DNA from: a plasmid
Assembly (NCBI RefSeq): GCF_988242995.1
Contig: NZ_OZ547045.1
DNA length: 33,568 nucleotides
Direction: 5' to 3' (one strand)
The translations under genes and the position numbers were made by a program. The stretch's first letter is position 1, and every line of letters begins with the position of its first letter. A model generated the notes under the pieces. That model had not been told where the DNA came from and made no database searches. It saw only the letters and a list, made by a program, of their open reading frames with translations. Positions 399 through 17,315 of the stretch are shown here, piece after piece.

Positions 399-1282
399 GA
401 TTTATCCCCCTCATCTTTTTTTACGCGCTTAACGTCTGGTGACGTAGTGCCGGTATTGATCGCCCCAAGATTTGGGTTGTAATTCATATTCAGGACGCCG
501 ACGACTTTATTCCCGTAACGAACACGCCATTCTTTAGCTACCGTTTCAGCAACAACAACGTTGTTATATTCACCGGCAGGGTGCTGATTAGGGGTATGCT
601 CTTTGCCATCAGCGCCAATATAAAACACAACGGGTAAATCTGCGTTTGCAGGGAATTTAAAATAGGTGAAACGGAAATTATCCCAGACGTTTACCGGGGC
701 CAAAGACCGCGATTCATCCTCATCGGACATTTTATAAAGCAGGTTGTAAGGCCCATTCTGAAGGTCTTTTAACGCCTTTTTCACGCGGTTGCTTTCCAGC
801 GTTTTATTTGCTTTTTTCATATCCTCAAACGGATAGAGATAAGTAAGCTGGAGAGTGGCATTTTTCATGCTCCACGGGGTTTTGATAAAGTTGGCTTTAA
901 CATTACCCTGGGCGTCTGTCGTGGTGTAGTCACCTACATAGTGCAGCACGATGTTATAAGTGCGCTTATTTGTGACCAGCACAAGGTTGGTGTCGCTGGG
1001 TACTTCCCCCTTCGGTTTGATGAACATGTTATTTTCTACATGGGTAAACGCATAACTATTGCTGTCACCAAAAGCATGTGTCACATAGCTTTCATCAGGC
1101 GCAACCACTATATGAGTGGCAACACCGGCAACGGAATCAATGCGCACCACATCAACCGGGTTATACACCACAGATTTAATCCGGTAGTCATATGGGCTAC
1201 CTTTCCCCACTTCCAGCGCCAGCGCCTGACCAGAAAGGCCAAGACTGACCAGAATTAAACCGGCAATTAATTGTTTTTTCAT
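395..1282 (-). CDS. virB9: VirB9/TrbG-family T4SS outer-membrane complex protein
   Basis: 295 aa, N-terminal signal peptide, beta-rich VirB9-like sequence, located between virB8 and virB10. Confidence 0.85.
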   Translation of the reverse strand: MKKQLIAGLILVSLGLSGQALALEVGKGSPYDYRIKSVVYNPVDVVRIDSVAGVATHIVVAPDESYVTHAFGDSNSYAFTHVENNMFIKPKGEVPSDTNLVLVTNKRTYNIVLHYVGDYTTTDAQGNVKANFIKTPWSMKNATLQLTYLYPFEDMKKANKTLESNRVKKALKDLQNGPYNLLYKMSDEDESRSLAPVNVWDNFRFTYFKFPANADLPVVFYIGADGKEHTPNQHPAGEYNNVVVAETVAKEWRVRYGNKVVGVLNMNYNPNLGAINTGTTSPDVKRVKKDEGDKS

Positions 1283-1284
1283 GA

Positions 1285-2007
1285 TCAGCCCCCCACAGCG
1301 CCAACGTTCTCAGCGTTCTTACGGTAACTCGTTACACGGAAGCCAAGCGGATTGATATAGCGCTGCTGCGCGGTCATTGGTAACGCTTTGTACTCATATG
1401 CAATCGTGGCAATCCAGTAGCGCGGAGGCTCAGGGTTTGGACGCTGGCGAATGCGCTGCTGCGTGGTGAAGCGAACGGTGGCAACGCCGTGTTCGCGGTC
1501 GGTTATGACAGAGTTGATATGAACGGTCGTCCTTTCCGTGTCGCCCAACCGCTTATCAATGCGGTTAGCGCCTTTGAACATGGAAAGATATTCATCTGCT
1601 ACATCACCGGCAGCCATCAGGCTCATTGCGTCATAATCAACCTGAATGCTGTTGTAGTCGTAGGACTCGCGGTGAATAACAAATTGTGAGATCCAGTATT
1701 GGTCTATCACATCGCCATAAGTGGCCTCATCGCGGGTAATTTTTACCTGCGATACTTCGCCAGTGTCTTTGTTAATCGTTGTGAGGTATGCCGGTAACGG
1801 CTGCGCAAAACGGATAATTACTCCGACCGCAGTAACCATGCTCACAACTGCAAAGACGAAAAAGGCCGTGGCAATCTTCCAGGCGCGTGAACGTGAATTA
1901 AGGATCTCATTAACCATATCGCGCTCAAGCCCTTGAGTTTCCTCATGGTACTTATTCAGCTCATCCCGCGATATTGCCTGATTTTTGTTTTTCTTAAACA
2001 TTGTCAC
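1285..2007 (-). CDS. virB8: VirB8-family T4SS inner-membrane protein
   Basis: 240 aa, single N-proximal TM helix followed by a periplasmic domain; synteny. Confidence 0.85.
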   Translation of the reverse strand: MTMFKKNKNQAISRDELNKYHEETQGLERDMVNEILNSRSRAWKIATAFFVFAVVSMVTAVGVIIRFAQPLPAYLTTINKDTGEVSQVKITRDEATYGDVIDQYWISQFVIHRESYDYNSIQVDYDAMSLMAAGDVADEYLSMFKGANRIDKRLGDTERTTVHINSVITDREHGVATVRFTTQQRIRQRPNPEPPRYWIATIAYEYKALPMTAQQRYINPLGFRVTSYRKNAENVGAVGG

Positions 2008-2174
2008 TCTCCGTTATTAGCGGCATCTGCACGATACAGCTCTGCGGGATACGTCTTGTTAACATCAACCAGCTTTCTCATGTTGGGTTCTGGCGGCGGC
2101 TTCGGGCTACTGGAACATGCGGCTAACATCAACCCGATAAGGGCCATTGCCGTGTATTTGAAGAAATGCACCAT
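2004..2174 (-). CDS. virB7: VirB7-like small lipoprotein
   Basis: Lipobox LAAC after a hydrophobic leader, Pro-rich mature part; ATG at 2174 preceded by GGGAG; ORF track extends to 2219 but has no RBS there; overlaps virB8 start. Confidence 0.6.
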   Translation of the reverse strand: MVHFFKYTAMALIGLMLAACSSSPKPPPEPNMRKLVDVNKTYPAELYRADAANNGE

Positions 2175-2213
2175 CTTTGTCACTCCCTTTGAGTCAGTCA
2201 CAAAAAAATAATA

Positions 2214-2243
2214 AGTCATCGAAATTACAATTTCAATGACTTA
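2214..2243. promoter_or_regulatory. 30-bp near-perfect palindrome overlapping a predicted minus-strand promoter (TTGAAA-17-TATTAT) upstream of virB7
   Basis: AAGTCATCGAAATTACAATTTCAATGACTT; shares the core TTGAAATTnCAATTTCAATGA with the site at 8650..8673. Confidence 0.5.
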
Positions 2244-2269
2244 TTAGAAATTTATTTCTACATCGTTTT

Positions 2270-3310
2270 TTAGCGCCGTGAACCCTTTGCGAAACCCTGC
2301 ATTTGAGAGGTCGCAGCGGAGGCCGCACCTGCGCCGGGGCCACCGGCAGCGGTAGCCGCCGCAGTCTTAGCACCAGAGCCGCCACCGGCACCCGCAGAGC
2401 CTTTTTGACCACCATCGCGGAGAGCGCCACCCCCACGGCTACCACCACCACCGTTGTTAGGAACCAGCTCCTGAATGCCCGCAGAAACACCATCCCCCCA
2501 ACGAGCGGCAATTTCAGGTACTCGCTGAAGGATCAGGTAAGAGACAATCATTATCAGCAGACACGCGAACACCGGCCCTAACAGGCTGGTATCAGCCCCG
2601 GAAGCGGTGACGGCATCGAGTGCCTTTTGATAGAACTTAATCATCAAGCCAAACAGCATCGACAGCAGGATTGTAACCAAGCCATAGTTAATCAACGAGC
2701 CAAGCCATTTATTGAACATGCCATGCAGCGGCTTGAATAACAGGCAGAAAATAAAGACAGGCCCAAAGCACACAGTGATTGCCAACAGTAACTTCGCCAT
2801 CAATATCAGCCCGGCCCCGATACCACAGATCAGCACCGTGGAGATAATGACGGCACAAGCCAGGAACAAAGACGCCAACCCGGAACCGCTATAAATATCG
2901 GCGTTATCAAATGCAGTACGTGCAACCTGCATCCCGTCATGAATAGCCTTGTCAATGTTGTTACCCATTGCATCTTCAGTGCCACCAGTCGAACCGTTAA
3001 TAACCAGCACCGAGGAAAACTCATCGGGGATCTTCATGGCCGCATCAGCCAGTTGGGTTTGATACAGCCCGCCCGCACTGGCAAAGCTGATTATCATCGA
3101 CCACACAATGAATTTTTTTATCAACGATGAGAGCGGATCACCATGTGGACGCGCTAATGTAAAAAGCCCGTCCAGGGTTAGTTTGCAAATCAACGCTAAC
3201 CCGATTACCGGTGAAATGGTGGATATAACAATTCCAAGATTAGAGGCCACAAATTCCTTTGTGACCGTATCCATGTAATTGAAAAGATCCGTTGTAAATG
3301 AAAAGGCCAT
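2270..3310 (-). CDS. virB6: VirB6-family polytopic T4SS membrane protein with C-terminal Gly/Ala-rich tail
   Basis: 346 aa, multiple hydrophobic helices, synteny after virB5/eex. Confidence 0.85.
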   Translation of the reverse strand: MAFSFTTDLFNYMDTVTKEFVASNLGIVISTISPVIGLALICKLTLDGLFTLARPHGDPLSSLIKKFIVWSMIISFASAGGLYQTQLADAAMKIPDEFSSVLVINGSTGGTEDAMGNNIDKAIHDGMQVARTAFDNADIYSGSGLASLFLACAVIISTVLICGIGAGLILMAKLLLAITVCFGPVFIFCLLFKPLHGMFNKWLGSLINYGLVTILLSMLFGLMIKFYQKALDAVTASGADTSLLGPVFACLLIMIVSYLILQRVPEIAARWGDGVSAGIQELVPNNGGGGSRGGGALRDGGQKGSAGAGGGSGAKTAAATAAGGPGAGAASAATSQMQGFAKGSRR

Positions 3311-3330
3311 GCTTTCCCCCTACGCCCTGT

Positions 3331-3567
3331 TCAGGGCGTGACTTTTGGCAATGAAAGGCCATCGTCATTTTTGCCAAACACTTTTAAATCTTTCTCTGCC
3401 TCCATCGCGTTCTGACAATCTGGCTTCACTTTGAGCGCCGCATCATCACGGCACTTTTCCACCATTGCTTTACGCTCTTTATCGTGCTCCTTGTACCAGG
3501 AAACAGGATGCTCAGAGTCGCAACCGGCCAGCAGGAAAAGAGCTAAAGGTAAAATCAGTTTTTTCAT
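3331..3567 (-). CDS. Small lipoprotein at the position of the entry-exclusion gene (eex) of pKM101-type T4SS loci
   Basis: 78 aa, lipobox LAGC, located between virB5 and virB6. Confidence 0.6.
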   Translation of the reverse strand: MKKLILPLALFLLAGCDSEHPVSWYKEHDKERKAMVEKCRDDAALKVKPDCQNAMEAEKDLKVFGKNDDGLSLPKVTP

Positions 3568-3570
3568 GGT

Positions 3571-4278
3571 TTATTCCGTTACGTTAGGCATGGAAAGATC
3601 TTCACCATCAGCACCGAGTACAAAGCGCTTCTGGGCGTATTGTTTTTGTTCCTGCAACATCTTGTCTTGCGAGGTTTGCAGCATTGCCATCAGTTGCAGC
3701 TTCGTTTGCTCCCCCTGAATAGCACCTTGCGCGGTCTGGATACGCGCCTGAAGGTCAGCGATTTGTTTCATATCCGTTGTTGAGTCAATTTGATTGGTCA
3801 GCTCCTGAATGTTGTTCAGCTCTGCCATTTCATTGTTATAAGCGGTCTGCGCCATCACGCGGTCATAAGCCCCTTTTTCAGCCAGTTTCTGCTTAATGAA
3901 ACTCATCGCTTCGGAACGGTTCATACCGTCAATCTGCGACTGAAATTCCTTCAGCATGGATTGAGCCGATGAAGTGATACCGGAATTGCTGTTCATGGCA
4001 TCGCTGTAAACCTGCGTCCAGTCAGACGGTAAATTTCCTTTGAGCTTACTAATGTCGCCATTCAGCAAATTACCAATGCCGGAGTTGCCGGTTAACGAGG
4101 CAAGGGTTTGCTCCTGCCTCAGCAATTGAGATTTGAGTTGTTCAATTTGCTGCGTCATTAACGAAACCTGTTCAACAGCCTGGGCCAGATTAGTAGGATC
4201 GTTAACAACCAGTTGCGCATTAACGGCAACCGGTGAAATAGCCAGAGCTAAAAAAACGCTAACAAGTGTCTTTTTCAT
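3571..4278 (-). CDS. virB5: VirB5-family minor pilus protein
   Basis: 235 aa, signal peptide, Gln-rich helical sequence, synteny after virB4. Confidence 0.8.
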
Positions 4279-4287
4279 GTCGTTACC

Positions 4288-6924
4288 TCACGCTGCGAGT
4301 ACAGATTTAAAGTAGGATTCGAGCCATTTATCAGGGGTATCATCCCCAATTTGCTCAATGATTTTCGCCAGTGTTTCGGCGTTTTGTGGTTCCCCTGACA
4401 GGATGCTAAGTATCTTGTCCAGCTTCCTGAAGTTCTCAGGCGTCTTAACGCGCGGGGCCAGGTTGAATTGCGCCATCGCACTTTGACTACCTTGTTTCAC
4501 AAGGAACTGGCGGGAGTTCTCAGGAATAGACAACAGCGCGTCAAACTCTGCCGGTGTCAGCTTGAGACGGGTTACGTAGTCCTCATAATCCGCATCCGGG
4601 TTTTCCAGAAGAATTTTAGTTACGCACTGCTGCATGATGGTTTTGCCAATGGCACTATCCAGCGCATCGTTTGGCTCTTGCGTGGAGAATACGTAAACCG
4701 CGTCTTTCTTACGGTCTGTTTTCAGGCCGCGTTTCACTTCCACCCGCATAATGGGATCGTCAAGGTACTGGTGAAACTCGTCGAATATCTGAATAACCCG
4801 GCGGCGGCCATCAATAGACTGACGCACACGGAAATTGAGATACATCAGCAGCGGTGTACGTGTTGCAGGAGGTATTTCATTATCTGCAACAATGAAATCA
4901 GTCAGGTCAAAACCGTAAATATCGTACTCACCGAGATTGAGGGAATCCGCGTCGTTATCGAACAACCACCCGTTTTCATGGCCGCGAGTCCACGGAACAA
5001 GCAACGATGCCAGCGTTTGTTTGCTACCCGCTGTTTGATATGGGTTAGGCATCTGACGCATCAACATATCCACGGTACGTAAATCCGTAGGGATAAGGGA
5101 GTTCTCATCCATCAAAGCGTCAACAGCGCGGTTAAGGTCATTCACCTGATCAGCATCGAGCACACTGCCTTTGGTAATTTCAGCACACAGGCGCATCAGG
5201 CGCTTACAAAACGCAATGTTAACTTTAGTGCCTGGCATCTGTAGAGGTGCCCACCCGGACGCAACACCTTCTTTCAAAACTGTATAGTGACCGTGTAACG
5301 CTTTAATCAGCGGCATCATGCCCTGATCACGGTCATAGGCAAAAATGCGCGGGTTATACTTCATTGATTGCGTCAGCAGGAAATTAAGCAGCGTCGTTTT
5401 ACCGGCCCCCGAACGGCCAAGCATTAACGTATGCGCCAGCGGGCGCTTACCGAAAGACATTTCATCTGCGGGCGTTACATGAAAGTTCATATACAGCGGC
5501 GTATTTGCCACAGTCTTGAACAACGTCAGTGCTGGCCCCCACGGATTATTGTTTGCTTTCCCGGACATAAAATTATGGAAAGGAGAGAAACAAAGAAAAT
5601 TCCAGCTATTCAGCGGGCAAGGGCGCGGCGATAAATGTTGATTAGCCGGGAGTTTTGCATAATAGGCCGCTTCGGAAGCTAACCCTACCTGGCTGGCGAT
5701 CAAGCCGCAATTGTTCAGCATATTTCTGGCTACACCGGCGTTTGAACGGGCCTCTTTGAGAGACTTGCCAAAGGTGTGTACCGTCAAATGATGCCAGCCC
5801 ATGATAAAGGTACGTGAAACCACGCCATCAACGGCGTCACTCATCTGGTTTATCTGCGTAAAGGACGGATCGCCTGTTTCCAGCAGCGCTTTTTGCTGGT
5901 TAGTAAGGTAAGTTCTTGCCGCTTGCTGGGACATACAGCAATACGTTTGAGTTAATACAAACTCAAACGGTGCTTCCATCAGGATATTGATTTGACCTGG
6001 TTCTGTATCAGAATCGTAATCCCGGATTTCAACGGCAGACGTGTAGCGGCGTTCGTCAGTACCGCGAATCTCGATACCATCCCCCCAAAATGAGGATATT
6101 GGGCGGGTAGTAGCTAAATATTCACGGATTCGGCCACGACAAACCGGCACTGGTGCCCACTCACCGTTAACCAGGTAATAGAGCCACTCAAGCGCTTTAG
6201 AATAGGTGTGTTGAGCACCACTAAAGACTTCTTTATCTTCCTGAATGTCCTGATATTCCACATCAGCCAGTAAATCCTCACGCAGATCGATAATGTCCTC
6301 ATCATCATCTTCTTCTGCATCTTCCTTTTTCTGCTCAGGAATGACATTCCCTCGCTTGTCGCGGAAGTAATAGCCTAAACGGTCGATGCCATAAGGACGC
6401 AGGGAGTTCATGACCTGCTCACAAACATCTTCCAACGCACCAATAGCATCAGTTTGCATTTCGCGCAGCTCGTCAGCCGATGGCTTATCAAACTTTGCCA
6501 GCATTTTTTGAGCGGCATCCCCTACCGGGTTATAAACAACCGTTAGGTAGAGGTCATTTACCATCATAGGAGTATCATCAAACTGATCGCGATAGTATTC
6601 ATTCACCATGCGCGGGAACGTCATATTGTAATGCGTGTCAGGATAATTATTAATTTCGCGGTGGTGTAAGTGAGTCCATAACTTAATATGTTCACTACCA
6701 ATACCCTTTAAAAGCTGATTTAAATCGGCATGCCACTTAATAAGTTCGGCATCAGAAGCGCAATCATGAGTTCGCCCCCGAATTTTAAATACAGAAAGGT
6801 ACTCCCCATTTACCGTACTGATAATATGAGGTGTTACATGGTAGGAGTAAGGAATATATTTTAAAGAGGATGGTTCTTTTCTGTAATCTTTAACCCCCCT
6901 CTTTTTCATTTCCGCTACGGCCAT
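4288..6924 (-). CDS. virB4: VirB4-family T4SS ATPase
   Basis: 878 aa, Walker A GRSGAGKT, characteristic size and position. Confidence 0.95.
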   Translation of the reverse strand: MAVAEMKKRGVKDYRKEPSSLKYIPYSYHVTPHIISTVNGEYLSVFKIRGRTHDCASDAELIKWHADLNQLLKGIGSEHIKLWTHLHHREINNYPDTHYNMTFPRMVNEYYRDQFDDTPMMVNDLYLTVVYNPVGDAAQKMLAKFDKPSADELREMQTDAIGALEDVCEQVMNSLRPYGIDRLGYYFRDKRGNVIPEQKKEDAEEDDDEDIIDLREDLLADVEYQDIQEDKEVFSGAQHTYSKALEWLYYLVNGEWAPVPVCRGRIREYLATTRPISSFWGDGIEIRGTDERRYTSAVEIRDYDSDTEPGQINILMEAPFEFVLTQTYCCMSQQAARTYLTNQQKALLETGDPSFTQINQMSDAVDGVVSRTFIMGWHHLTVHTFGKSLKEARSNAGVARNMLNNCGLIASQVGLASEAAYYAKLPANQHLSPRPCPLNSWNFLCFSPFHNFMSGKANNNPWGPALTLFKTVANTPLYMNFHVTPADEMSFGKRPLAHTLMLGRSGAGKTTLLNFLLTQSMKYNPRIFAYDRDQGMMPLIKALHGHYTVLKEGVASGWAPLQMPGTKVNIAFCKRLMRLCAEITKGSVLDADQVNDLNRAVDALMDENSLIPTDLRTVDMLMRQMPNPYQTAGSKQTLASLLVPWTRGHENGWLFDNDADSLNLGEYDIYGFDLTDFIVADNEIPPATRTPLLMYLNFRVRQSIDGRRRVIQIFDEFHQYLDDPIMRVEVKRGLKTDRKKDAVYVFSTQEPNDALDSAIGKTIMQQCVTKILLENPDADYEDYVTRLKLTPAEFDALLSIPENSRQFLVKQGSQSAMAQFNLAPRVKTPENFRKLDKILSILSGEPQNAETLAKIIEQIGDDTPDKWLESYFKSVLAA

Positions 6925-7238
6925 TATTTTTTATCTCCATAATCGGTAGGTGAGTAACTAGAGCCGCCCCATAGCTTAGTAAATGGGGAGTTAATCATAT
7001 TTAGCCCTTTCGTCATGATAGCGAGCCATATAATGCGAAACATACGGTCGTCATGCTTGCTGATACAAAATTCAATAAACCACAGCAAGCCAAAAAGAAC
7101 TAAGGCCCAAAGGTGGATCGTCATAAATAACGTCGCACAAAATATGAAGGTGGCAATAATCACTGTTCGCGGAACACCGGCAAATGTCGGCAGTCGCGTA
7201 GCGCCTTTAAATAATGGATATTTACCGGATAAATTCAT
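6924..7238 (-). CDS. virB3: VirB3-family T4SS membrane protein
   Basis: 104 aa, two hydrophobic segments, stop overlaps virB4 ATG (ATGA). Confidence 0.85.
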   Translation of the reverse strand: MNLSGKYPLFKGATRLPTFAGVPRTVIIATFIFCATLFMTIHLWALVLFGLLWFIEFCISKHDDRMFRIIWLAIMTKGLNMINSPFTKLWGGSSYSPTDYGDKK

Positions 7239-7287
7239 CGTTTCCTCCCGTTAGATACGGGCCGGGGGAAACCCCCGGCAAACCTTC

Positions 7288-7578
7288 TTAACTCAGCCCA
7301 AACAGGCCAACCAGGTAGGACGCGGAACCGACGACAATCAGACCGACAACAATACGAACCGCCCAGCTAGCAGGGAGCATATGAGCGATCCACGCGATAG
7401 CACTGACGATAATCAGAACGGTGGCCGCAACCGGAATCCACGTCATTAACCAGGAGTTAACCGAACTCATGGAGGATTCACCGGTATCTGCACCGGCGGC
7501 AAGCGCCAGCTCAGGAGCACACAAAGCAACCATCATGAACATTGCCACCGGGAAATAACGTTTAATCGCTGTATTCAT
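7288..7578 (-). CDS. virB2: VirB2/TrbC-family pilin precursor
   Basis: 96 aa, long signal sequence then two hydrophobic helices typical of T-pilin. Confidence 0.85.
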   Translation of the reverse strand: MNTAIKRYFPVAMFMMVALCAPELALAAGADTGESSMSSVNSWLMTWIPVAATVLIIVSAIAWIAHMLPASWAVRIVVGLIVVGSASYLVGLFGLS

Positions 7579-7879
7579 CTTTGTCTAACACTCCATCATC
7601 AGGAAAAATAAAATCAGGCTCATCCAGGAAAAGCCCCACTTCTTTTGCATCAAAATCGTCTCTCAGCATTTCGGCCAGTATCCTCAGATCGGCCCACGTT
7701 CTAACCCCCTCTCCAGACTGGACTCGCAGGGAGCACGTAATTACTCCCCCCTCGCTATTTCTCACATCAAAAAGCGGTATCCATTTCTTTTTATCCATCC
7801 GTTGAATAGCGATACGAATTACTTTTTTTTGATTAAAAACTTCCTCTAACTGCTTCAACAAGATGAGATAAACGCGCAT
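7562..7879 (-). CDS. Hypothetical 105-aa protein between virB1 and virB2 (the position occupied by korA in pKM101/R388-type loci)
   Basis: Intact ORF overlapping virB2 start; no motif recognised; function assigned by position only. Confidence 0.5.
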   Translation of the reverse strand: MRVYLILLKQLEEVFNQKKVIRIAIQRMDKKKWIPLFDVRNSEGGVITCSLRVQSGEGVRTWADLRILAEMLRDDFDAKEVGLFLDEPDFIFPDDGVLDKDEYSD

Positions 7880-7906
7880 TGAGCGAACTCCTGTTACTCC
7901 CTGCTT

Positions 7907-8640
7907 CTACCGAAAAGCGTCACCATCAGATGCACCAAAAGCGTCTTTATCCGAGCCACCAAAGGCATCAGTCATACCGGCATCTTTTGGTTTTTCTTCA
8001 CCAACAGCAGCATCTACCGGCACAGCATCAATAGCAGCATCAACACTTTCTATATCAGTGGAACCATCATCGGCTTTCAGAGCAGGGATTACGGGTTTTG
8101 ATTGCCCTATTTGAGCAACCACCTTCGAAACATAACCGTTTGTAAATCCGGCGGTTAATGAACCCGTATTATAGCAAGACAATGCGTGTCTCAAAGCTGA
8201 CTGCCCCGGCGCATATTCCTTTGTTGCGAGCTGGTAGCAGTAGTTAAGTACCGTTTGTGCAGCTTCAAGATTTTTACAGCCATTAAACAGGTCAGCGGCT
8301 GAAACATTCAATTTTGAGAAATTCGCAGAGTTGATTTGCCCTAAACCTACGTCAAAGTTATAACCATGAGCCGTTAACCATTCGGTCGTTTTCACAGCCT
8401 CATCAAGTGATCGCGGTTGTTTAGCTAGCGGTGATTTCGTACCTTCAGGAACGTTAACGTTTATCGCGTATGGGTTGTTGCGCGATTCATGGCTAACCAA
8501 GTAACCAACAGTTAATGGGTGTACTTCTGGCGCACAACGTTTCGCCAACGCCATAACTGGCGCAGACAGCTCCGCAGTTGCGGGCGTGGCACCCATAAGA
8601 CCAGCAATTAACAGTGGGAAAAGGCTAACAACCTGCTTCA
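7907..8640 (-). CDS. virB1: VirB1-family lytic transglycosylase with C-terminal DAFG-repeat tail
   Basis: Signal peptide MKQVVSLFPLLIAGLMGATPATA, SLT-like core (ESR.NPYA...GLGQIN), start taken at ATG 8640 with AAGGA RBS; ORF track extends further upstream. Confidence 0.85.
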
Positions 8641-8649
8641 TCTCTTTTT

Positions 8650-8673
8650 TCCTTGAAATTGCAATTTCAATGA
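8650..8673. promoter_or_regulatory. Palindromic operator-like site in the divergent virB1 / hns-like promoter region
   Basis: TCCTTGAAATTGCAATTTCAATGA containing the perfect 18-bp palindrome TTGAAATTGCAATTTCAA; overlaps a plausible TTGCAA-17-TATAGT plus-strand promoter. Confidence 0.55.
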
Positions 8674-8703
8674 TTAACTGGTATAGTAAAGGTAAATTAG
8701 AAC

Positions 8704-8940
8704 ATGTCAAGACAAGATGAAAAGAAGCACAAAACAGAGCAGGAGCGCAAAACATCAGTGCCTAGACGAAAAATCATATTCGTACCCTTGCAGTCAGAAA
8801 AAAGCCCCAAAGGGGAGCCGCGCTACAGAGATCCCACCAATCCATTCAACACATGGGTTGGGAGGGGAAAGCGCCCTGACTGGCTAAAAAAGTATCTTGC
8901 TGAAGGCCGCGAGCTTTCGGAGTTTGAGATAACAGAATAA
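8704..8940 (+). CDS. Short H-NS C-terminal-domain-like DNA-binding protein (no oligomerisation domain)
   Basis: 78 aa; C-terminus ...FNTWVGRGKRPDWLKKYLAEGRELSEF matches the H-NS DNA-binding motif TW(T/S)G(R/Q)GR.P. Confidence 0.6.
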   Translation: MSRQDEKKHKTEQERKTSVPRRKIIFVPLQSEKSPKGEPRYRDPTNPFNTWVGRGKRPDWLKKYLAEGRELSEFEITE

Positions 8941-8951
8941 GGAGTTGACGG

Positions 8952-9404
8952 ATGAGTAAAGTTATTGATTTTCCTACCGGGAAAAACAGGGAGAGAAGGG
9001 CTAAGGCGATCCGGGCGCGTCGTAATAAGGCGCAGCAGCGGAGCGGAATAACCCCCTCCCAATTTTGGTGGGTAAAGAAAATAAAGTTTCTCACCGTTAT
9101 TAAAGGGTCGGCACGTTTACTTTTGATACATTCAGGGTTATTAGTTGCCGACATCCTTATCTATCTCATCTTTATTTTAGGAAAACTCCTAAAGGTATTT
9201 ACGATAATTGGCATCATCGCGGCGCTTCTGTTTCTGGTCGTGGAATATAGGAAGGATTGGCAATATACGCAATCCGCAATCCACGTCGCAGCACTATTTG
9301 TTGGCCTGGTAGTAATACGTATCGGGCATGACAAACTACTGAATGGCCTGATAAGGCTTAAATCCTACCTATCCAGAAAAGGGCAACAACAATGCGGAAG
9401 ATAA
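8952..9404 (+). CDS. Hypothetical membrane protein with basic N-terminal region
   Basis: 150 aa, AAGGAG RBS, Arg/Lys-rich N-terminus followed by hydrophobic helices. Confidence 0.6.
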   Translation: MSKVIDFPTGKNRERRAKAIRARRNKAQQRSGITPSQFWWVKKIKFLTVIKGSARLLLIHSGLLVADILIYLIFILGKLLKVFTIIGIIAALLFLVVEYRKDWQYTQSAIHVAALFVGLVVIRIGHDKLLNGLIRLKSYLSRKGQQQCGR

Positions 9405-9709
9405 TACTTGCGTCCGTGGTGATACTGGCATCGTCTTATTCGGCTGCCAGCCTTGCAAAAGATCCATGTAAGACATTAGCTTGCATGGCTGCAAAATCAG
9501 GTGGTGAGTTTGGGAGTGTTGGCGATAGTGATTGCTCTGGTGCCATAGCTGACTTCTTCAACATTGTGAAGAAAAACAAACACGGCTTCCTTCCTAACCA
9601 TACCGCCGATGCTCGCAAAGAATTTATTATGAGTTGTCCAGGAGCGGCGCAGAACACCGCCGCAGTTAACCGGGTTATTTCAATGTTTGGACGTATCAGG
9701 AAAGGTTAA
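9392..9709 (+). CDS. Hypothetical secreted Cys-containing protein
   Basis: 105 aa, signal peptide ending ASLA, several cysteines; overlaps upstream gene end. Confidence 0.5.
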   Translation: MRKIILASVVILASSYSAASLAKDPCKTLACMAAKSGGEFGSVGDSDCSGAIADFFNIVKKNKHGFLPNHTADARKEFIMSCPGAAQNTAAVNRVISMFGRIRKG

Positions 9710-9711
9710 AC

Positions 9712-10026
9712 ATGAAACTTAAAAGCATGATCTTTACCGCCGCTCTTTTACTGACAGGTTGCGCCAGTCAATCACAGGTTGAGCAGCTAACCAAGCAGGT
9801 GAACACGCTCAAAACAGATATGTATAACCTACAGATTCAACAGCGTAACGATACTAAGGCACTTCAGCGCGAGGTACAGAAATCTCGCCCAATCGGTGTT
9901 TGCTACCTTGACGGCCAGCCCTATTCACAGGGAGCGGTCATTGCTGGCCGCATTTGCGCCAGCAATGGCGTTATTGTCAACGACAGGCCCGCAGAAGTTT
10001 CATGGCAGGTTTATCACCGCCGCTAA
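9712..10026 (+). CDS. Hypothetical lipoprotein
   Basis: 104 aa, lipobox LTGC, abuts upstream gene. Confidence 0.55.
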   Translation: MKLKSMIFTAALLLTGCASQSQVEQLTKQVNTLKTDMYNLQIQQRNDTKALQREVQKSRPIGVCYLDGQPYSQGAVIAGRICASNGVIVNDRPAEVSWQVYHRR

Positions 10027-10071
10027 CAGCAAATCCGGGGCTTCGGCCCCGTTTTTTATGGTACAGGTAGC

Positions 10072-10725
10072 ATGGACATACTTTCTCTTTTCCCGTCTAA
10101 CCTCATCGCATTATGGGCCGTCTCATTCGGTTTTCTGGCCGTCCTGTATTGGTGGAAAGTCACCGGCAGAAAACGCAGACACAAGCGCAAACAGCAACAG
10201 GCCCGGCGTGTACTCGCAAAAATTCAGACTCTACCGGGGTTCGGCTACAAGATCGCGTATCTCAGAAAGATAGACCCTTTCACCTTTGAAGAATTATTAC
10301 TGGAGGGGTTTGAATCGCATGGCTTCAGAACTATCAGAAACAAGCGCTATACCGGCGATGGAGGCATTGACGGCCAGGTAATCATTGGAAAGGATCGCTA
10401 TCTCATCCAGGCCAAACGCTATGGCGGTCATATCGCTTTACAGCACGTTCAGGAGTTCGATAAGTTGCTTAAACGTCATAATTGTCGCGGTCTGTTTTGC
10501 CATACCGGAAAAACCGGCGCAGGTTCAAAATCAGTTAGCCTTGCCAGTGATCGGATGGAGATTATCAGCGGCCAGCGCCTTATTGATTTACTCACGCCCG
10601 GCAGCTCCTTCACCATCGCAACCGCACCGCAGACAATGATGAGGCGTACCGCAGCAACGCGAGGAACGAACACCATTGTCGAGGAAGCGGATAAAGAAAC
10701 AACCAACAGCATGAGAGTTAATTAA
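10072..10725 (+). CDS. Membrane-anchored Mrr-like (PD-(D/E)xK restriction-endonuclease-fold) protein
   Basis: 217 aa; N-terminal TM helix and poly-basic stretch, then GDGGIDG ... IQAKRY motifs characteristic of the Mrr catalytic domain. Confidence 0.7.
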   Translation: MDILSLFPSNLIALWAVSFGFLAVLYWWKVTGRKRRHKRKQQQARRVLAKIQTLPGFGYKIAYLRKIDPFTFEELLLEGFESHGFRTIRNKRYTGDGGIDGQVIIGKDRYLIQAKRYGGHIALQHVQEFDKLLKRHNCRGLFCHTGKTGAGSKSVSLASDRMEIISGQRLIDLLTPGSSFTIATAPQTMMRRTAATRGTNTIVEEADKETTNSMRVN

Positions 10726-11127
10726 ATGAAGTCTGTAACTATAGAAGCTAAAGCGTTTGCTGAAATGTTGGGAATAACAGAGGGTGAGTTAGTTATTGCT
10801 ATCAAGACAACTGGAAAATTTAAAAACAAGACTATTCCACAGCCTCATACTCCCCATAAATCGAAGAACAGATTTTTATATTCTGACGTGGTGAAGTTTA
10901 TGGAATCAATAAAGCAAAAAGAAAATCTACATAAAAGTTACTTGATGCGTTTTCGTCGGTGCAGGTCATTAGATACTCTTGAAAAGGTATTTGAAAGTTT
11001 GCGCGAAAAGTTAACGGGTAACGAACTGGACGCAATGATGAGCGCGTCAGACCATCGCAGAGCCGAAATTGCTCACAATACTTTATGGGATAAAGTCCCG
11101 GCATCTGCATGGAGAAATGTAAAATAA
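10726..11127 (+). CDS. Hypothetical protein with putative HTH, AT-rich, translationally coupled to the Mrr-like gene
   Basis: 133 aa; ATG overlaps the upstream stop (TAAATG); visibly lower GC than the neighbouring gene; followed by a terminator. Confidence 0.55.
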   Translation: MKSVTIEAKAFAEMLGITEGELVIAIKTTGKFKNKTIPQPHTPHKSKNRFLYSDVVKFMESIKQKENLHKSYLMRFRRCRSLDTLEKVFESLREKLTGNELDAMMSASDHRRAEIAHNTLWDKVPASAWRNVK

Positions 11128-11130
11128 ACA

Positions 11131-11156
11131 AGGCCCGGCACCGGGCTTTGTTTTTA
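11131..11156. terminator. Bidirectional rho-independent terminator
   Basis: GGCCCGGCACCGGGC hairpin flanked by A-run and T-run, between convergent genes. Confidence 0.7.
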
Positions 11157-11158
11157 GT

Positions 11159-11485
11159 CTATCCAATCAGCACTTTTATTTTAGCCCTAACCTCAGCTAA
11201 TACGACAGGAGGCACTTTTCCCTTTTTAACCGCGCCACGTTCCCGCCAATCAAGGCTTTTCACCTGGTCAGCCAGTACAGCGCTCCCCTCCCCGCTCATA
11301 ACCTCAAACGGATAACCTTTTATTTTTGTTGTCATAGGGCAGCACAGCAACAACCCTATTCTGCCGTTATATACCGCAGGGCTTAACACTAAGGCTGGTC
11401 TATGCCCCGCTTGTTCATGCCCTGCTTGCGGATTAAAATCCATCCATACAATATCACCGGCATCAGGAATATAGTCATTCGCCAT
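11159..11485 (-). CDS. mazF: MazF/PemK-family endoribonuclease toxin
   Basis: 108 aa; YIPDAGDIVWMDFNPQAGHEQAGHRPALVLSP ... LADQVKSLDWRERGA ... KVLIG closely resembles E. coli MazF (from memory). Confidence 0.9.
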   Translation of the reverse strand: MANDYIPDAGDIVWMDFNPQAGHEQAGHRPALVLSPAVYNGRIGLLLCCPMTTKIKGYPFEVMSGEGSAVLADQVKSLDWRERGAVKKGKVPPVVLAEVRAKIKVLIG

Positions 11486-11753
11486 TTTCTAACTTCTTCC
11501 TTCTATAGCCAACCCAGATAAACGTCAAAATGATAACGCCGCAAAGAATAAACATCAGTGCAACTGGAGTTGTATCGAGCACAGAAATAACTTGCTTACC
11601 ACCCTGATCGTCTAATGAAAAAGATTTATCATTAAACAACCTGTCTATACCCAACCATATTGAGTAAACGGCAATCCAAACCCATGCAACCTTACCGGCT
11701 ATATCCAGTAAAGCCACCACTCTTTTAAATATTTTTTTCATTGCAGGAGACAT
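11475..11753 (-). CDS. Hypothetical two-helix membrane protein inserted between mazE and mazF
   Basis: 92 aa; ATG 1 nt after mazE stop, stop overlapping mazF start by 11 nt; two hydrophobic segments. Confidence 0.5.
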   Translation of the reverse strand: MSPAMKKIFKRVVALLDIAGKVAWVWIAVYSIWLGIDRLFNDKSFSLDDQGGKQVISVLDTTPVALMFILCGVIILTFIWVGYRRKKLENGE

Positions 11754-11754
11754 A

Positions 11755-12000
11755 TTACAACACCTCTTTTCCTACTGGTGCGCCGAAAGAAATTTCCTCA
11801 TGAATATTCTCGTTAGTAACACAGGCCATCAAAGCATCCAGTGAATATTCCTTCGTTTTAACCGGCACAATAGTAATTTTCCCGTCCTCAACAGACAGCT
11901 CCACTACATCATTCACGCTTAAAGAAGCCTCCCGGATAATCGAAGAAGGGAGACGAACGGACGGGCTGTTACCCCATTTTTTAATAGTTACTTGAGTCAT
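11755..12000 (-). CDS. mazE: MazE/PemI-family antitoxin (AbrB-fold)
   Basis: 81 aa; KKWGNSPSVRLPSSI ... IHEEISFGAPVGKEVL parallels E. coli MazE (from memory). Confidence 0.9.
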   Translation of the reverse strand: MTQVTIKKWGNSPSVRLPSSIIREASLSVNDVVELSVEDGKITIVPVKTKEYSLDALMACVTNENIHEEISFGAPVGKEVL

Positions 12001-12030
12001 TACGCACCTCAGTTAAAAGCAGTTAGCCGG

Positions 12031-12237
12031 TTATCGGCTATTTAAGATGTACCAGGTTTCTTTAGCTTTAAAGAAAGCCCATACCCACGCCAGAGCTGAA
12101 GCTATACACAACGCCGTCATATTGACGAAGTTTCCCGGCGTGTATTCAGGGCCATGTAAAACAAGACCCGCCAGAGAAGCCAGGCTAATGACTATGAAAA
12201 TCAGTCCAAACATGATGTGAAAAATAAGCCAAAACAC
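12031..12237 (-). CDS. Hypothetical small membrane protein upstream of mazE
   Basis: 68 aa, two hydrophobic helices; start codon uncertain. Confidence 0.4.
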   Translation of the reverse strand: MFWLIFHIMFGLIFIVISLASLAGLVLHGPEYTPGNFVNMTALCIASALAWVWAFFKAKETWYILNSR

Positions 12238-12249
12238 TCACCACCTCCC

Positions 12250-12313
12250 GTATCAACCTTGTTGATACATTAACGCTACACTCTGTAGATTGACGTGTCA
12301 ACATTGTTGATAC
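12250..12313. promoter_or_regulatory. Cluster of palindromes in the divergent TA-operon / resolvase control region
   Basis: GTATCAACcttGTTGATAC (12250..12268), TTGACGTGTCAA (12290..12301), GTCAACattGTTGATAC (12297..12313). Confidence 0.5.
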
Positions 12314-12336
12314 AGGTAGTGTCTCATAAACGATGA

Positions 12337-12441
12337 GTTTTGTTACACCGCTCCCGACCTATCCAAAAGCATCAAAATGTATGTTGCCAGTGTAACAAAA
12401 CTCGTTACAATAGTATGTGTAACAAAAACGGTGTAACAAAA
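12337..12441. promoter_or_regulatory. Putative res (resolution) site: repeated TGTAACAAAA half-sites just upstream of the resolvase gene
   Basis: TGTAACAAAA at 12391, 12418 and 12432, inverted TTTTGTTACA at 12337; position matches res of serine resolvases. Confidence 0.5.
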
Positions 12442-12451
12442 AGCAGGACAT

Positions 12452-13036
12452 ATGAAGATAGGCTACGCCAGAAAGTCAACTAAAGAGCAAGACACATCGC
12501 TTGAGTACCAGATTGAGGCTTTACAAAAAGCCGGGTGCGAAAAGTGGTATGCGGAGCAGGTATCGAGAAGCGGTAGTAAACGGCTTAAAGCAGGTACACC
12601 AGAGTTAGAAAATTGCATCAAAGCGCTTCGCCCTGGTGACACGCTGGTTGTGTGGGCGCTAGATCGGTTGGGCGGGACTCTATTACAGCTTTTGCAGCTT
12701 ATGAATGAGCTACGCAACAAAGGCATTCATTTTGAAAGTATTAAAGAACATATCGACACACAAAGTCCAATGGGTGAAATGTACTATTCGCTCATAGCTA
12801 TTTTTTCCAATTTCGAGGTAGCCAGAAACCACGAAAGGACAATGGCCGGGCTTGCGGCTGCAAAGAAGAAAGGGCGCATTGGTGGCAGAAAACCAAAGCT
12901 ATCACCACAAGACATAAAAGAAATTAACGCGCTTGTTAAATCGCCAGAAGTTACGGTAAAAGAGATCGCGGCTCGTTTTAACGTGTCACGGCCAACGATT
13001 TACAGACACATTACCCCCGATAGTAATACTGATTAA
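12452..13036 (+). CDS. Serine recombinase of the resolvase/invertase family (plasmid multimer resolution)
   Basis: 194 aa; N-terminal GYARKSTKEQ with catalytic Ser, C-terminal HTH (VSRPTIYRHI). Confidence 0.9.
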   Translation: MKIGYARKSTKEQDTSLEYQIEALQKAGCEKWYAEQVSRSGSKRLKAGTPELENCIKALRPGDTLVVWALDRLGGTLLQLLQLMNELRNKGIHFESIKEHIDTQSPMGEMYYSLIAIFSNFEVARNHERTMAGLAAAKKKGRIGGRKPKLSPQDIKEINALVKSPEVTVKEIAARFNVSRPTIYRHITPDSNTD

Positions 13037-13068
13037 CCGGCGGCAAACGGTAGCGAAGGAGCTAAACA

Positions 13069-13953
13069 GTGACAGATAAATCAGTACCAGCGAAGCAGAT
13101 AAAAACGGTAAACACCGGAATCGCGATTAAAGAGAATCCCCCCAAAGGGGATGATATGGCATTCACCCATTCGATATTGTGTCAAGTTGGCCTCCCCCGC
13201 TCTAAAGTGGATGGCCGGGAGTTCATGAGAAAATCAGGCGATGCCTGGCTAGTTGTCCAGGCCGGCTGGCTTGATGAAGGAAGCGGCCCGGTAGAACAAC
13301 CGATCCCCTACGGCTCAATGCCCCGTTTAGCGCTCGCCTGGGTATCGTCGTATGCACTCCGCAAAAAGACCCGCGAAATACCGATCGGTAAGAGTGCTAA
13401 TGAGTTCCTGCAATTAATGGGTTTATCAGGCGGCGGCAGACAATACAAAACACTACGCGAACAAATGCACGCGCTGGCAGCTTGCCGGTTGCAGTTAGGT
13501 TTTAAAGGTCGTTCTTTCAACGGCCAGCCTGTAGAGCAATTCGATGCCTGGCAGAAAGACGACCAAAGCGGCCAGCTAAGTTTATGGCCGGGCGTAATGA
13601 CCCTTTCAGAAGGGTACTTTAATGGGCTGATTGATAGCGCCGTTCCTCTCGATAACCGCGCTCTGTACGCGCTAAAGGGTTCGGCATTGTCGTTAGATGT
13701 TTATACGTGGCTTGCGCATCGTCTACACCGCATCCAGGGCCGACCGATTAAACTTCACTGGATGAATTTACGGGAGCAGTTTGCGCAAGAGTATATGGGT
13801 AAAGACCCTGACAAAGATTTTAAGAAGAAATTTCTTCCAGCTCTGCGCGACGTACTGACTGTATACCCACAGGCGAAGGTGGATAAAGTCACCGGAGGGA
13901 TATTACTGTATCCGTCTCCCCCACCTATCCCGTTCAAGGAAGGAAAAAAATAG
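13069..13953 (+). CDS. repA: Putative replication initiator (RepA-like)
   Basis: 294 aa; immediately upstream of the iteron array and DnaA boxes, downstream of resolvase. Assignment is mainly by context. Confidence 0.65.
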   Translation: MTDKSVPAKQIKTVNTGIAIKENPPKGDDMAFTHSILCQVGLPRSKVDGREFMRKSGDAWLVVQAGWLDEGSGPVEQPIPYGSMPRLALAWVSSYALRKKTREIPIGKSANEFLQLMGLSGGGRQYKTLREQMHALAACRLQLGFKGRSFNGQPVEQFDAWQKDDQSGQLSLWPGVMTLSEGYFNGLIDSAVPLDNRALYALKGSALSLDVYTWLAHRLHRIQGRPIKLHWMNLREQFAQEYMGKDPDKDFKKKFLPALRDVLTVYPQAKVDKVTGGILLYPSPPPIPFKEGKK

Positions 13954-13975
13954 GCCCATACGGGCCTTTTTTTTA
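13951..13975 (+). terminator. Rho-independent terminator after repA
   Basis: GGCCCATACGGGCC hairpin followed by T8. Confidence 0.75.
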
Positions 13976-14056
13976 TTCACAGCAATTCCACTGCGATTTT
14001 CTGACCAGATCGGGGTAATGTGAACAAACCTGTAAAAAACCTGTTGAAACATGAAG

Positions 14057-14370
14057 TTATCCACGTACATCCGACCCCCCTGATTACCGTACATCCGACC
14101 CCCCTTGTCGTACATCCGACCCCCTAGCTTTGTACATCCGACCCCCTAAGTCGTACATCCGACCCCCTTTTTTTGTACATCCGACCCCCTATTTTTTGTA
14201 CATTAGACCCCCTGAAAATACGTACATCAGACCCCCCCTAAACCTATAAGGTGATCTCCTGTAGGTTTCCTGTAGTTTGACCGATAGCACTTAACCTATA
14301 AATTTTGCTTCTAAGAGATCAGCCTGTATGAATGCCCTCCGATAATTTATTCAATAAAATCAGTGGATAA
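14057..14370. other. oriV: DnaA-box-like sites flanking the iterons plus an AT-rich stretch
   Basis: TTATCCACG at 14057..14065; AGTGGATAA at 14362..14370; AT-rich 14280..14400. Confidence 0.7.
14065..14240. repeat. Iteron array: 8 direct repeats of GTACATCCGACCCCC at 21-24 bp spacing (last two degenerate)
   Basis: Repeat units begin near 14065, 14089, 14110, 14132, 14153, 14175, 14198 and 14222. Confidence 0.85.
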
Positions 14371-14713
14371 AATAATAAATCGAATAATTTAAGTTCAGTG
14401 TGTACGTGCCAATATCAGCAGCGGGAGCCTTTGCGCTTCCTCGCTTTTGTTGTTCGTTCCTCGCGTTGCTGCGGTACGCCTCAACAAAAGACTGCGGCGA
14501 GCGCTGCGATCTCTCAGGTAACAGATTGGGATTTAGTGCAAAGGGGGGAGGTAAAAAAGAGTGAGGCCCATCACCGGCAAGTAATGGGCCTCTGTCTTTC
14601 CTGCGAAGGAGCAGATTAGACGTTGTAAGAAGTATAGACGAAAGCAGTGTGGTATTGAAAGGGGATTCAGAGCGCCCTATATTTAATCATCAATACATCA
14701 ATTTTGGTGACTT

Positions 14714-15133
14714 ATGAAAAAAACGCTATTGAGCCTAACCCTGTTAGCTACCACCTGTCAGGCAAGCGCCCAGCCTTGCACAGTGATCTTTGAAAATGGT
14801 CAGTTAATTACGTTACCGGCGGCTGTCACTCAGGCAGACCAGGTGAAAGGGCTATCTGGTGATAATCACAACACCGGCTTAATCCTGGCATGGAACACAG
14901 CAGAACCCCGCGCAGTCTGGATGAAAAACACACCGAATCCACTTACAGCGGCGTTTATCAGTGCAAATGGCGTAATCCAGAGCGTTCAGGATATGCAGCC
15001 CAACAGCGACACCGCGCATTCATCCCTCCACCCGACCATAGCAATCATTGAGATGAGGACGGAAAAATTTAAACAGTTCAAATTATCAAAAGGCGACAAA
15101 GTCATTTCCAGCCAATGTTTCCCCCTCAAATAA
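14714..15133 (+). CDS. Hypothetical secreted protein
   Basis: 139 aa, signal peptide with ASA cleavage motif; no family recognised. Confidence 0.5.
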   Translation: MKKTLLSLTLLATTCQASAQPCTVIFENGQLITLPAAVTQADQVKGLSGDNHNTGLILAWNTAEPRAVWMKNTPNPLTAAFISANGVIQSVQDMQPNSDTAHSSLHPTIAIIEMRTEKFKQFKLSKGDKVISSQCFPLK

Positions 15134-15245
15134 CGCCTCAGAACCCCGTAGAGCCATTCAATCAGAAAAAAGCGGCCTCATGTACAGCTCAACCAAAATA
15201 GCCGCTTACAGAGCCATACAGCGCGTATATAACCAATATCGCCCG

Positions 15246-15690
15246 GCGGCACCGGCGCTAACGTGCCTGTAGGGGCGCTGGCCGCGCTGCGGCCATCCCC
15301 CCAACACCCGGATAAATCGCGCCCGGCCCGTCGCTACGCGCCAGCCCGCCCGCTCAACCGGGCCGTTGTGACGGGCCACTGTTCCGGCAGCGGCATCGTG
15401 TGACAGCCCGCTAAAACCGGCTTTGCAGGGAGGGGGTGGGCGCGTCTCCCGGTTTGATCCCGCAAGGCCCGGCAATTTGACCACGTCGCCCAGGTTGAGA
15501 TCGGCGCAGTTGCCTTTTATTTGTCGGCATCGGCGCTAAATTTAAGTAAATTTATCGTACTATATAATGATACTTAAAGTTGACTTTTGAGGGGGAAAAG
15601 CCTATACTTTATTTACGGTTAGCAATGGTGCTGACCGACCCGGAACCAGTGGCGGCAACCGCTCCGGGGAACTTGCGAAGGGGGCAAGAA
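15246..15690. repeat. CUP-like GC-rich repeat, copy A (5'-truncated; lacks the first ~198 bp of copies B and C)
   Basis: Near-identical to 18515..18959 and 20672..21113. Confidence 0.85.
15580..15636 (+). promoter_or_regulatory. Cassette promoter P1 (TTGACT-17-TATACT) with leader hairpin GGTTAGCAATGGTGCTGACC
   Basis: -35 at 15580..15585, -10 at 15603..15608, inverted repeat at 15617..15636. Confidence 0.7.
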
Positions 15691-15960
15691 ATGAATTTAA
15701 CCACACTGCTTAAAAAGCATTTTGATATTGAGGAATGTACAGATGTAGACCCTATGGTAAACCGGGAGGTTTACGCCATATGGGTTTATGAAAAAGGCGA
15801 GGATTGCGAGCCGCTTTTAATCCTCAAAGATGCTCAGGATGTTATGGGCGTAGACGGCTGGCTTGTCGGGAATATCTATTCCACGTTGCAACATGGCTTA
15901 TTGCTTCAGCATGAAGAACTGAAAATGATGATCCGAAACGGCGAGATTAAGAGCCGTTAA
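15691..15960 (+). CDS. Hypothetical small protein (first gene after cassette P1)
   Basis: 89 aa; ATG 10 nt after the conserved CTGCGAAGG leader end; ORF track shows a longer frame whose upstream part lies in the repeat. Confidence 0.6.
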   Translation: MNLTTLLKKHFDIEECTDVDPMVNREVYAIWVYEKGEDCEPLLILKDAQDVMGVDGWLVGNIYSTLQHGLLLQHEELKMMIRNGEIKSR

Positions 15961-15970
15961 ATGTTTATGC

Positions 15971-16048
15971 GGTCGGCAATGGTGCCGACCGGCCCGGAAT
16001 CAGCGGCGGCAACCGCTCCGGGCAAACTGCGAAGGTACAGAGGCTAAT
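15971..16048 (+). promoter_or_regulatory. Promoter-less copy of the cassette leader (both hairpins plus RBS) in the intercistronic gap
   Basis: GGTCGGCAATGGTGCCGACC (15971..15990), CCCGGAATCAGCGGCGGCAACCGCTCCGGG (15993..16022), CTGCGAAGG, then ATG 16049. Confidence 0.6.
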
Positions 16049-16264
16049 ATGTCAGTAAAAGATTTCTCCCCTACCCTGGAAATTAAATTCCATCGTCGCC
16101 GCTGGCGTATCATGGCTGGATGCTCAAGCCTGGCGTCGTTCCGCTCCGAGCAGGACGCGATTGATGCGCTCAATAAGCGGCGCTCATTCTATGAATATTG
16201 GGCCGGTTCTGCCGGTGTCCAGGCAGAGAACACCGAGCCGGTGATAGTCCACATAACCTATTGA
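16049..16264 (+). CDS. Hypothetical small protein
   Basis: 71 aa; preceded by the leader-only cassette. Confidence 0.55.
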   Translation: MSVKDFSPTLEIKFHRRRWRIMAGCSSLASFRSEQDAIDALNKRRSFYEYWAGSAGVQAENTEPVIVHITY

Positions 16265-16341
16265 ACACTTTTAAAGCCCGTAAACCGGGCTTTTTTAGTC
16301 TTTAAAGTACAATTAAAAGTAAAAAATAATGATACCAATAG

Positions 16342-16399
16342 TTGACTTATGGAGGGTGAACACCTATACTTTATTCATCGGTTAGCAATAGTGCTGACC
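16342..16399 (+). promoter_or_regulatory. Cassette promoter P2 (TTGACT-17-TATACT) with leader hairpin
   Basis: -35 at 16342..16347, -10 at 16365..16370, GGTTAGCAATAGTGCTGACC at 16380..16399. Confidence 0.7.
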
Positions 16400-16453
16400 G
16401 GCCCGGAACCAGCGGCGGCAACCGCTCCGGGCAAACTGCGAAGGAGTAATATT

Positions 16454-17281: not shown

Positions 17282-17289
17282 TGGCAAAT

Positions 17290-17315
17290 GCCCCGCTTAC
17301 CGGCGGGGCTTTTAT
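17290..17315 (+). terminator. Intrinsic terminator / attenuator between the upstream gene and ssb
   Basis: GCCCCGCttaccgGCGGGGC hairpin followed by TTTTAT. Confidence 0.55.

Follow-up and report, generated by a model that had tools for sequence, protein, structure and literature searches.

Two near-identical palindromes in the type IV secretion system (T4SS) region of this IncN-type plasmid are very probably operator boxes of the plasmid's kor circuit, a negative-feedback circuit acting on the T4SS genes, and we put the probability of this reading at roughly 85%. One box lies between korB and virB1, the other between virB6 and virB7, within the stretch of 33,568 nucleotides that we analyzed (NZ_OZ547045.1, hereafter the window). 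The preliminary description of this DNA had proposed that one repressor governs both the divergent virB1 promoter and an internal virB7 promoter. Comparison with related plasmids supports this proposal and suggests that it corresponds to the known kor regulon of IncN and IncW plasmids. The repressor-operator circuit is already known experimentally from pKM101 and R388, and the finding is in this respect correct but ordinary. The lineage that hosts the box pair here is an unstudied, IncN3-like one.

The window was typed as IncN, MOBF and MPF_T from the MOB-suite types of matching PLSDB plasmids. Approximately 1,370 PLSDB plasmids match its first 12 kb; those that match best over the full length reach 91% identity, measure about 35 kb and come from Klebsiella, Escherichia, Salmonella and Citrobacter. 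The 33.8-kb Salmonella plasmid CP074311.1 is 98-99% identical to the window in the three regions compared, and the window (about 33.6 kb) therefore represents nearly the whole plasmid. The order of genes, korB / virB1-korA-virB2...virB6 / virB7..., is that of R46/pKM101 (korB / traL-korA-traM...traD / traN...) and of R388. The T4SS genes are encoded on the minus strand. They start with virB1 (7907..8641), a homologue of the lytic transglycosylase genes traL and trwN, which is followed by korA (7562..7879), virB2 (7288..7578), virB3 (6924..7238), virB4 (4288..6924), virB5 (3571..4278), eex (3331..3567) and virB6 (2270..3310; traD/trwI homologue, PF04610 with 126.7 bits). Beyond the second box follow virB7 (2004..2174), the traN/trwH homologue encoding a 56-aa lipoprotein with a signal peptide ending in LMLAAC/S, virB8 (1285..2007) and virB9 (395..1282). 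Divergently from virB1, the plus strand encodes korB (8704..8940, ATG at 8704), which forms a group with a 150-aa ORF and with kikA (9392..9709), the latter lying within the korB operon.

The palindromes are TTGAAATTGCAATTTCAATGA at 8653..8673 and TCGAAATTACAATTTCAATGA at 2219..2239, at the coordinates and with the close likeness that had been claimed for them. Both are parts of 24-bp KorA-type operator boxes, box A (8650..8673) and box B (2216..2239), which we defined by motif, by weight matrix and by their occurrence at the same positions in ten other lineages. The core of box A is a perfect 18-bp palindrome, TTGAAATTGCAATTTCAA, at 8653..8670. Around box B the symmetry extends further, and the palindrome first described here as 30 bp long in fact spans 38 bp (2209..2246), its two 18-nt arms being 94% complementary around a 2-nt centre. 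When the 33.6-kb window was searched with the degenerate 21-mer allowing up to three mismatches, only the box A and box B loci were matched; being palindromes, both appeared on the two strands. By chance, 0.01 matches were expected from this search, and none of 100 dinucleotide shuffles reached four. A position weight matrix derived from homologous boxes gave the same picture, scoring box A at 36.4 bits, box B at 34.4 bits and the next-best site of the window at 10.3 bits. The looser core GAAATTNNAATTTC, searched with two mismatches, was not enriched in the window (6 matches vs 3 expected), and specificity therefore resides in the full box only. An Rfam scan of the whole window returned no matches.

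Several other repeat families were seen in the window. At 14064..14238 there are seven iteron-like direct repeats of about 22 bp (CGTACATCCGACCCCC...) spaced 21-24 bp, an array that is probably the replication origin. Three copies of a repeat of at least 300 nt, 99-100% identical, occupy 15148..15542, 18417..18811 and 20573..20967, and five promoter-like units of about 100 nt (...TTGACTTTTGAGGGG...TATACT...) are located at 15540, 16302, 18809, 20965 and 21734; repeat and units resemble the IncN 'conserved upstream repeat' elements that front leading-region genes. A different perfect 16-bp palindrome, TGGATTGTGCAATCCA, is present in five copies at 23084..23144 and 24506..24619 and constitutes a second, unrelated operator-like family. 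About ten tandem 11-bp repeats, T(T/A)TCAGTAGTA, at 24872..25013 are reminiscent of the StbA-type direct-repeat binding arrays near oriT. Finally, a 53-nt inverted repeat (10637..10689 and 14434..14486, 89% complementary) flanks a 3.7-kb segment that contains the iteron array and, by comparison with an IncN3 plasmid, Hha-like and MazEF-like genes; it may be a rearrangement scar or a module boundary.

Both palindromes had been said to overlap predicted promoters, and three of the four best sigma-70-like matches (10/12) in positions 1..13000 indeed sit there. The sigma-70 consensus scan as a whole showed no enrichment over shuffled sequence, for which reason the promoter calls rest mainly on conservation across lineages. 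The predicted virB7 promoter (2208..2236, minus strand, 10/12) consists of a -35 TTGAAA (2236..2231), a 17-nt spacer and a -10 TATTAT (2213..2208). Its -35 is the left arm of box B, and TATTAT follows directly after the box, a placement kept in seven of ten lineages in the anchored alignment. The predicted promoter of virB1-korA-virB2..virB6 (8683..8710, minus strand, 10/12) has a -35 TTGACA (8710..8705), a 16-nt spacer and a -10 TACTAT (8688..8683), and its CTTGACA is invariant across all aligned lineages. Box A begins about 9 nt past this -10 and is predicted to span about +4..+27; the Shine-Dalgarno sequence of virB1, AAGGA (8654..8650), overlaps the end of the box. On the opposite strand, the predicted korB promoter (8659..8687, 9/12 with TG present) uses the centre of box A, TTGCAA (8659..8664), as its -35, followed by a 17-nt spacer and a TG-extended -10 TATAGT (8682..8687). 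Across lineages, reading of the sequences revealed that TTGCAA or TTGTAA at the centre of the box is kept together with the TATAGT-like reverse reading of the -10. The -10 hexamers of virB1 and korB thus overlap on opposite strands and each -35 lies inside the region transcribed from the other promoter; hence, judged from this layout, the two promoters should compete for polymerase and a single repressor should affect both. Within the window korA has neither a promoter nor a box of its own, and the gap between virB1 and korA measures 27 bp. Promoter activity is known for the homologous fragments of R388 (PMC3937220).

We compared the korB/virB1 and virB6/virB7 intergenic regions of six loci, namely an IncN3 plasmid (L001), R46 (L002), R388 (L003), a Xanthomonas hortorum plasmid (L004), an IncN2-like plasmid (L005) and a K. 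africana plasmid (L006). A related palindrome was present at both places in all of them, with the consensus T-Y-R-AAATTGCAATTT-Y-R-A. A 24-nt weight matrix was trained on 12 of the boxes from these loci. With it, the IncN3, K. africana, R46 and IncN2 sequences each showed two strong boxes and no more, located where they are in the window, followed by a large gap in score. Six loci, two of them partial, served as hold-outs in which boxes were recovered by a matrix not trained on them. The held-out Xanthomonas virB7 box scored 38.2 bits. In a K. pneumoniae assembly (L007, KorA 64% identical), a P. syringae pv. actinidiae contig (L008, KorA 49% identical) and a metagenomic contig (L009), both boxes were recovered at 33-39 bits with a next-best match of at most 8.4 bits. 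In a distant 143-kb contig (L012, KorA about 27% identical), the virB7 box is a perfect 24-bp palindrome scoring 31.2 bits, and the upstream box scores 14.8 bits. Two further loci (L010, L011) were left out as too short to reach the promoters. Altogether the box occurs at the same two sites, in the korB/virB1 intergenic region and a short way upstream of virB7, in ten other lineages: IncN1/R46, IncN2, IncN3, K. africana, Xanthomonas, P. syringae, IncW/R388 and three metagenomic or assembly loci. Averaged over columns, the majority fraction in the anchored ten-lineage alignments was 0.89-0.90 in the boxes vs 0.52-0.70 in the flanks, and the conserved blocks besides the boxes were the -35 and -10 hexamers.

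Some observations on these loci concern their annotation and context. The module of L012, an ENA metagenome scaffold, is complete (korB / ...korA-virB2...virB11 at 7688..18285, with both boxes) and adjoins phage-tail and lysozyme genes, a setting that points to an integrated or far larger element with this circuit on it. On the Xanthomonas plasmid an annotated 'hypothetical protein' (13320..13586) spans the virB7 operator box (13339..13362); the true start of the VirB7 lipoprotein is probably near 13402 (GTGATGCGTTCTCGG...). The korB genes of L007 and L008 are present in the DNA and uncalled by the annotation. A full-text literature search for the box sequence retrieved irrelevant matches only.

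The closest link to experimental data comes from the IncW plasmid R388. Here, KorA alone represses PtrwH (the promoter of the virB7 homologue, about 90-fold), PkorA and PkikA, and none of the promoters responded significantly to korB alone, in assays that were run in E. coli (PMC3937220). A later paper by the same group describes the TRA operons of R388 and of pKM101 as auto-repressed by KorA (PMC11828410). We mapped the published reporter primers onto R388, which places PkikA/PkorB at 279..449, PkorA at 1641..1830 and PtrwH at 7071..7311. The matrix finds five boxes in R388, at 374, 1707, 1730, 7198 and 7276, and all five fall inside these three KorA-repressed fragments, which make up 1.8% of the plasmid. 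R388 shares with the window the gene order korB / (kikA) virB1-korA-virB2..virB6 / virB7..., homologous KorA and KorB proteins, and the box core AAATTGCAATTT both in the korB-divergent region and between the -35 and -10 of the virB7-homologue promoter, the PtrwH box sitting between TTTACA and TAGACT. The two plasmids differ in the arms of the box (TCAAAATTG in R388, TTGAAATTG in the window), in the position of kikA (upstream of trwN on the T4SS strand in R388, in the korB operon in the window) and in the number of boxes, R388 having five with a tandem pair (1707, 1730) in a separate PkorA between trwN and korA, whereas the window has two. Several boxes per promoter are a feature of R388 that was seen in none of the IncN-type loci. 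The fifth R388 box (7276..7299, CCATCATTTTTGCAATTTTGATGA) lies within the beginning of the trwH reading frame, on the downstream side of the PtrwH box.

R46, the IncN1 relative, resembles the window even more closely. Like the window it is typed as IncN, MOBF and MPF_T by MOB-suite and carries boxes at the same two positions. Its traN box, GTCGTTGAAATTGCAATTTCGACGAC, barely differs from box B, and its traL promoter has the TTGACA-16-TAnnAT-box layout of the virB1 promoter. In contrast, the right arm of the traL box is degenerate (24.2 bits vs 36.4 bits in the window), and the KorA of the window carries an extra acidic tail of about 15 residues relative to R46 KorA. For pKM101, More, Pohlman and Winans reportedly mapped promoters at traL, traN and korB in 1996 and are said to have found that repression needs both KorA and KorB. 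PMC5062321 cites More et al. 1996 for the statement that in IncN plasmids KorA and KorB negatively regulate kik/kil and T4SS genes.

The name KorA is also used in IncP-1 plasmids (RK2/RP4), and the logic is the same, i.e. a small plasmid repressor, palindromes in several promoters and negative autoregulation. IncP-1 KorA is a helix-turn-helix (HTH) repressor of the TrfB family with the operator OA, GTTTAGCTAAAC. When the window was searched for OA with up to two mismatches, there were no matches. We therefore ruled out that the KorA of the window is an IncP-1 KorA/TrfB HTH repressor: it has no Pfam match and no match to a PDB sequence, its alpha/beta model lacks an HTH and OA is absent. The 'KorA family' of PMC9723621 was likewise rejected as a model, as that paper deals with the unrelated IncP KorA/ArdK HTH family.

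The preliminary description had named the protein at the korA position and an H-NS-like protein as candidate regulators. By its sequence, the 105-aa product of korA belongs to the IncN/IncW KorA family. It matched the NCBIfam profile NF041289 ('KorA family transcriptional regulator') over profile positions 1-85 of 91 with an E value of 8.5e-23 and 79.9 bits, a score below the curated cut-off of 100 bits, and shares 42% identity with R46 KorA and 30% with R388 KorA, including the conserved RTWAD motif. The family is small. An exhaustive profile search of 1.84 billion proteins yielded 75 representative clusters, and a word-indexed protein search found 8 relatives only. The 78-aa H-NS-like product, judged in the same way, is a KorB homologue: it contains one H-NS C-terminal DNA-binding domain (PF00816, 56 bits, cut-off 25.6) and is 57% identical to R46 KorB and 33% to R388 KorB. 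R46 KorB (L002, 2746..3117) has two such domains in tandem vs one in the proteins of the window, IncN3 and R388, and its start differs between PGAP and an older annotation (123 aa vs 101 aa). korA and korB co-occur in every lineage examined. Between the two candidates, the case for the KorA-position protein has become stronger, and that for KorB alone has become weaker since korB alone had no significant effect in R388.

How might the circuit operate? A KorA dimer most likely binds the two-fold symmetric box, probably aided by the H-NS-like KorB, as the sequences and the analogy to R388 would suggest. On box B, the bound repressor would cover the -35 and the spacer and exclude RNA polymerase from the virB7-virB11 promoter. 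On box A, it would shut the korB(-kikA) promoter by occluding its -35, and the same repressor would block binding or escape of polymerase at the virB1/korA promoter, where the box lies at about +4..+27. Repression of the virB1 promoter from box A would in turn make korA autoregulated. By these means the kor circuit would hold expression of the conjugative type IV secretion genes close to zero in hosts where the plasmid is established. Direct contact between KorA and the box is plausible, and we infer it from the strict dyad symmetry, the extreme conservation of the box and the sufficiency of KorA alone in R388; the dimer stoichiometry, the exact start sites and the likeness of this plasmid's behavior to that of its relatives are inferred as well. 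A search of the accessible literature found no footprint or structure for KorA-box binding. We also sought co-variation between operator and KorA as a means to assign the binder, and the box proved essentially invariant even at about 27% KorA identity, which leaves this comparison without power.

The alternative that deserves most attention holds that KorB, or the host proteins H-NS or StpA, contacts the two A-tract arms of the box and that KorA is a non-DNA-binding adaptor which confers specificity or bridges two KorB molecules. PF00816 in KorB is the sole recognizable DNA-binding domain of the KorA/KorB pair, and the AT-rich core AAATTGCAATTT would suit it. The E. coli host of the R388 assays has its own H-NS and StpA. 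KorA had no Pfam match and no PDB sequence match. Its AlphaFold2 model, which was built from a 73-sequence alignment and is confident (pLDDT 89.9, pTM 0.80), shows the topology beta-alpha-beta3-alpha-beta with an invariant R60-T-W62-A-D loop and an acidic disordered tail (residues 86-105), and in this predicted fold no recognizable DNA-binding motif and no HTH was found. According to the model, KorA would be a small fold for which no relative has been solved, with R-T-W-A-D as an invariant loop, and its acidic tail could contact the basic KorB. The reported need for both proteins in pKM101 and the constant company of korA and korB would fit an adaptor as well. Nevertheless, we consider this explanation unlikely. 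KorA alone achieves repression of up to about 90-fold in R388 whereas korB alone does not repress significantly. Moreover, strict two-fold symmetry and position specificity, both retained in the box from Xanthomonas to Enterobacteria, are usual for the site of a sequence-specific dimer, whereas H-NS domains have a loose preference for AT-rich DNA. The invariant basic and polar residues K31, S50, R60 and T61, which map to the small conserved core of KorA, also count against a role as adaptor only. Direct binding by KorA, with KorB as probable helper, is the reading that we prefer.

The extended palindrome at box B raises a different possibility, namely that the main role of this site, or a further one, is that of an intrinsic terminator or attenuator which ends the virB1-virB6 transcript and would split the T4SS genes into two units, its likeness to box A being secondary. 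Read as sense-strand RNA of the T4SS operon, 2209..2246 would form a 17-bp AU-rich hairpin of -17.5 kcal/mol followed by seven U, a combination that is terminator-like. Shortly before its PtrwH box, R388 carries a GC-rich hairpin as a separate element, and insulation after virB6 may be common. However, the stem contains only three G-C pairs. The U-tract after box B is confined to the clade of the window, IncN3 and K. africana and is absent from R46, IncN2, Xanthomonas, L007, L008, L009 and L012, all of which retain the box together with the -10 that adjoins it. The outer arms carry uncompensated mismatches in L007-L009, which leaves an RNA stem without covariation. Box A has no outer arms, no U-tract and no such hairpin, and termination at box B would leave the identical box at the virB1/korB promoters unexplained. 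We therefore regard a main or additional role of site B as terminator or attenuator as quite improbable; it is not the conserved function, and if read-through from virB6 is attenuated here, this may be an extra of the lineage. That the similarity of the palindromes is a chance or neutral, functionless repeat, for which only the AT-richness of intergenic DNA speaks, carries practically no weight and is already refuted by the shuffled controls and by the retention of position and sequence in ten lineages with KorA identity down to about 27%.

A more far-reaching version of the operator reading is that KorA represents a new kind of operator-binding protein, either reading a 20-24-bp palindrome in a new way or acting as an adaptor that places KorB or host H-NS on the A-tract arms, with box B perhaps serving in this clade also as an RNA attenuator hairpin for virB1 read-through. 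We hold this to be possible, if rather doubtful.

The kor operators identified here mainly allow a confident annotation of the window, with two operators, three predicted promoters and korA and korB as regulators, and the comparison yields as a by-product an explicit consensus box valid from Enterobacteria to Xanthomonas and Pseudomonas. KorA is a genetically named repressor without a recognizable DNA-binding fold and is thus a reasonable target for structural work. The kor circuit sets the expression level of the conjugation pore in a widespread family of resistance plasmids, with more than 1,300 IncN-type records in PLSDB, and it is also behind the burst in transfer-gene expression that has been described for R388 on entering a new host.
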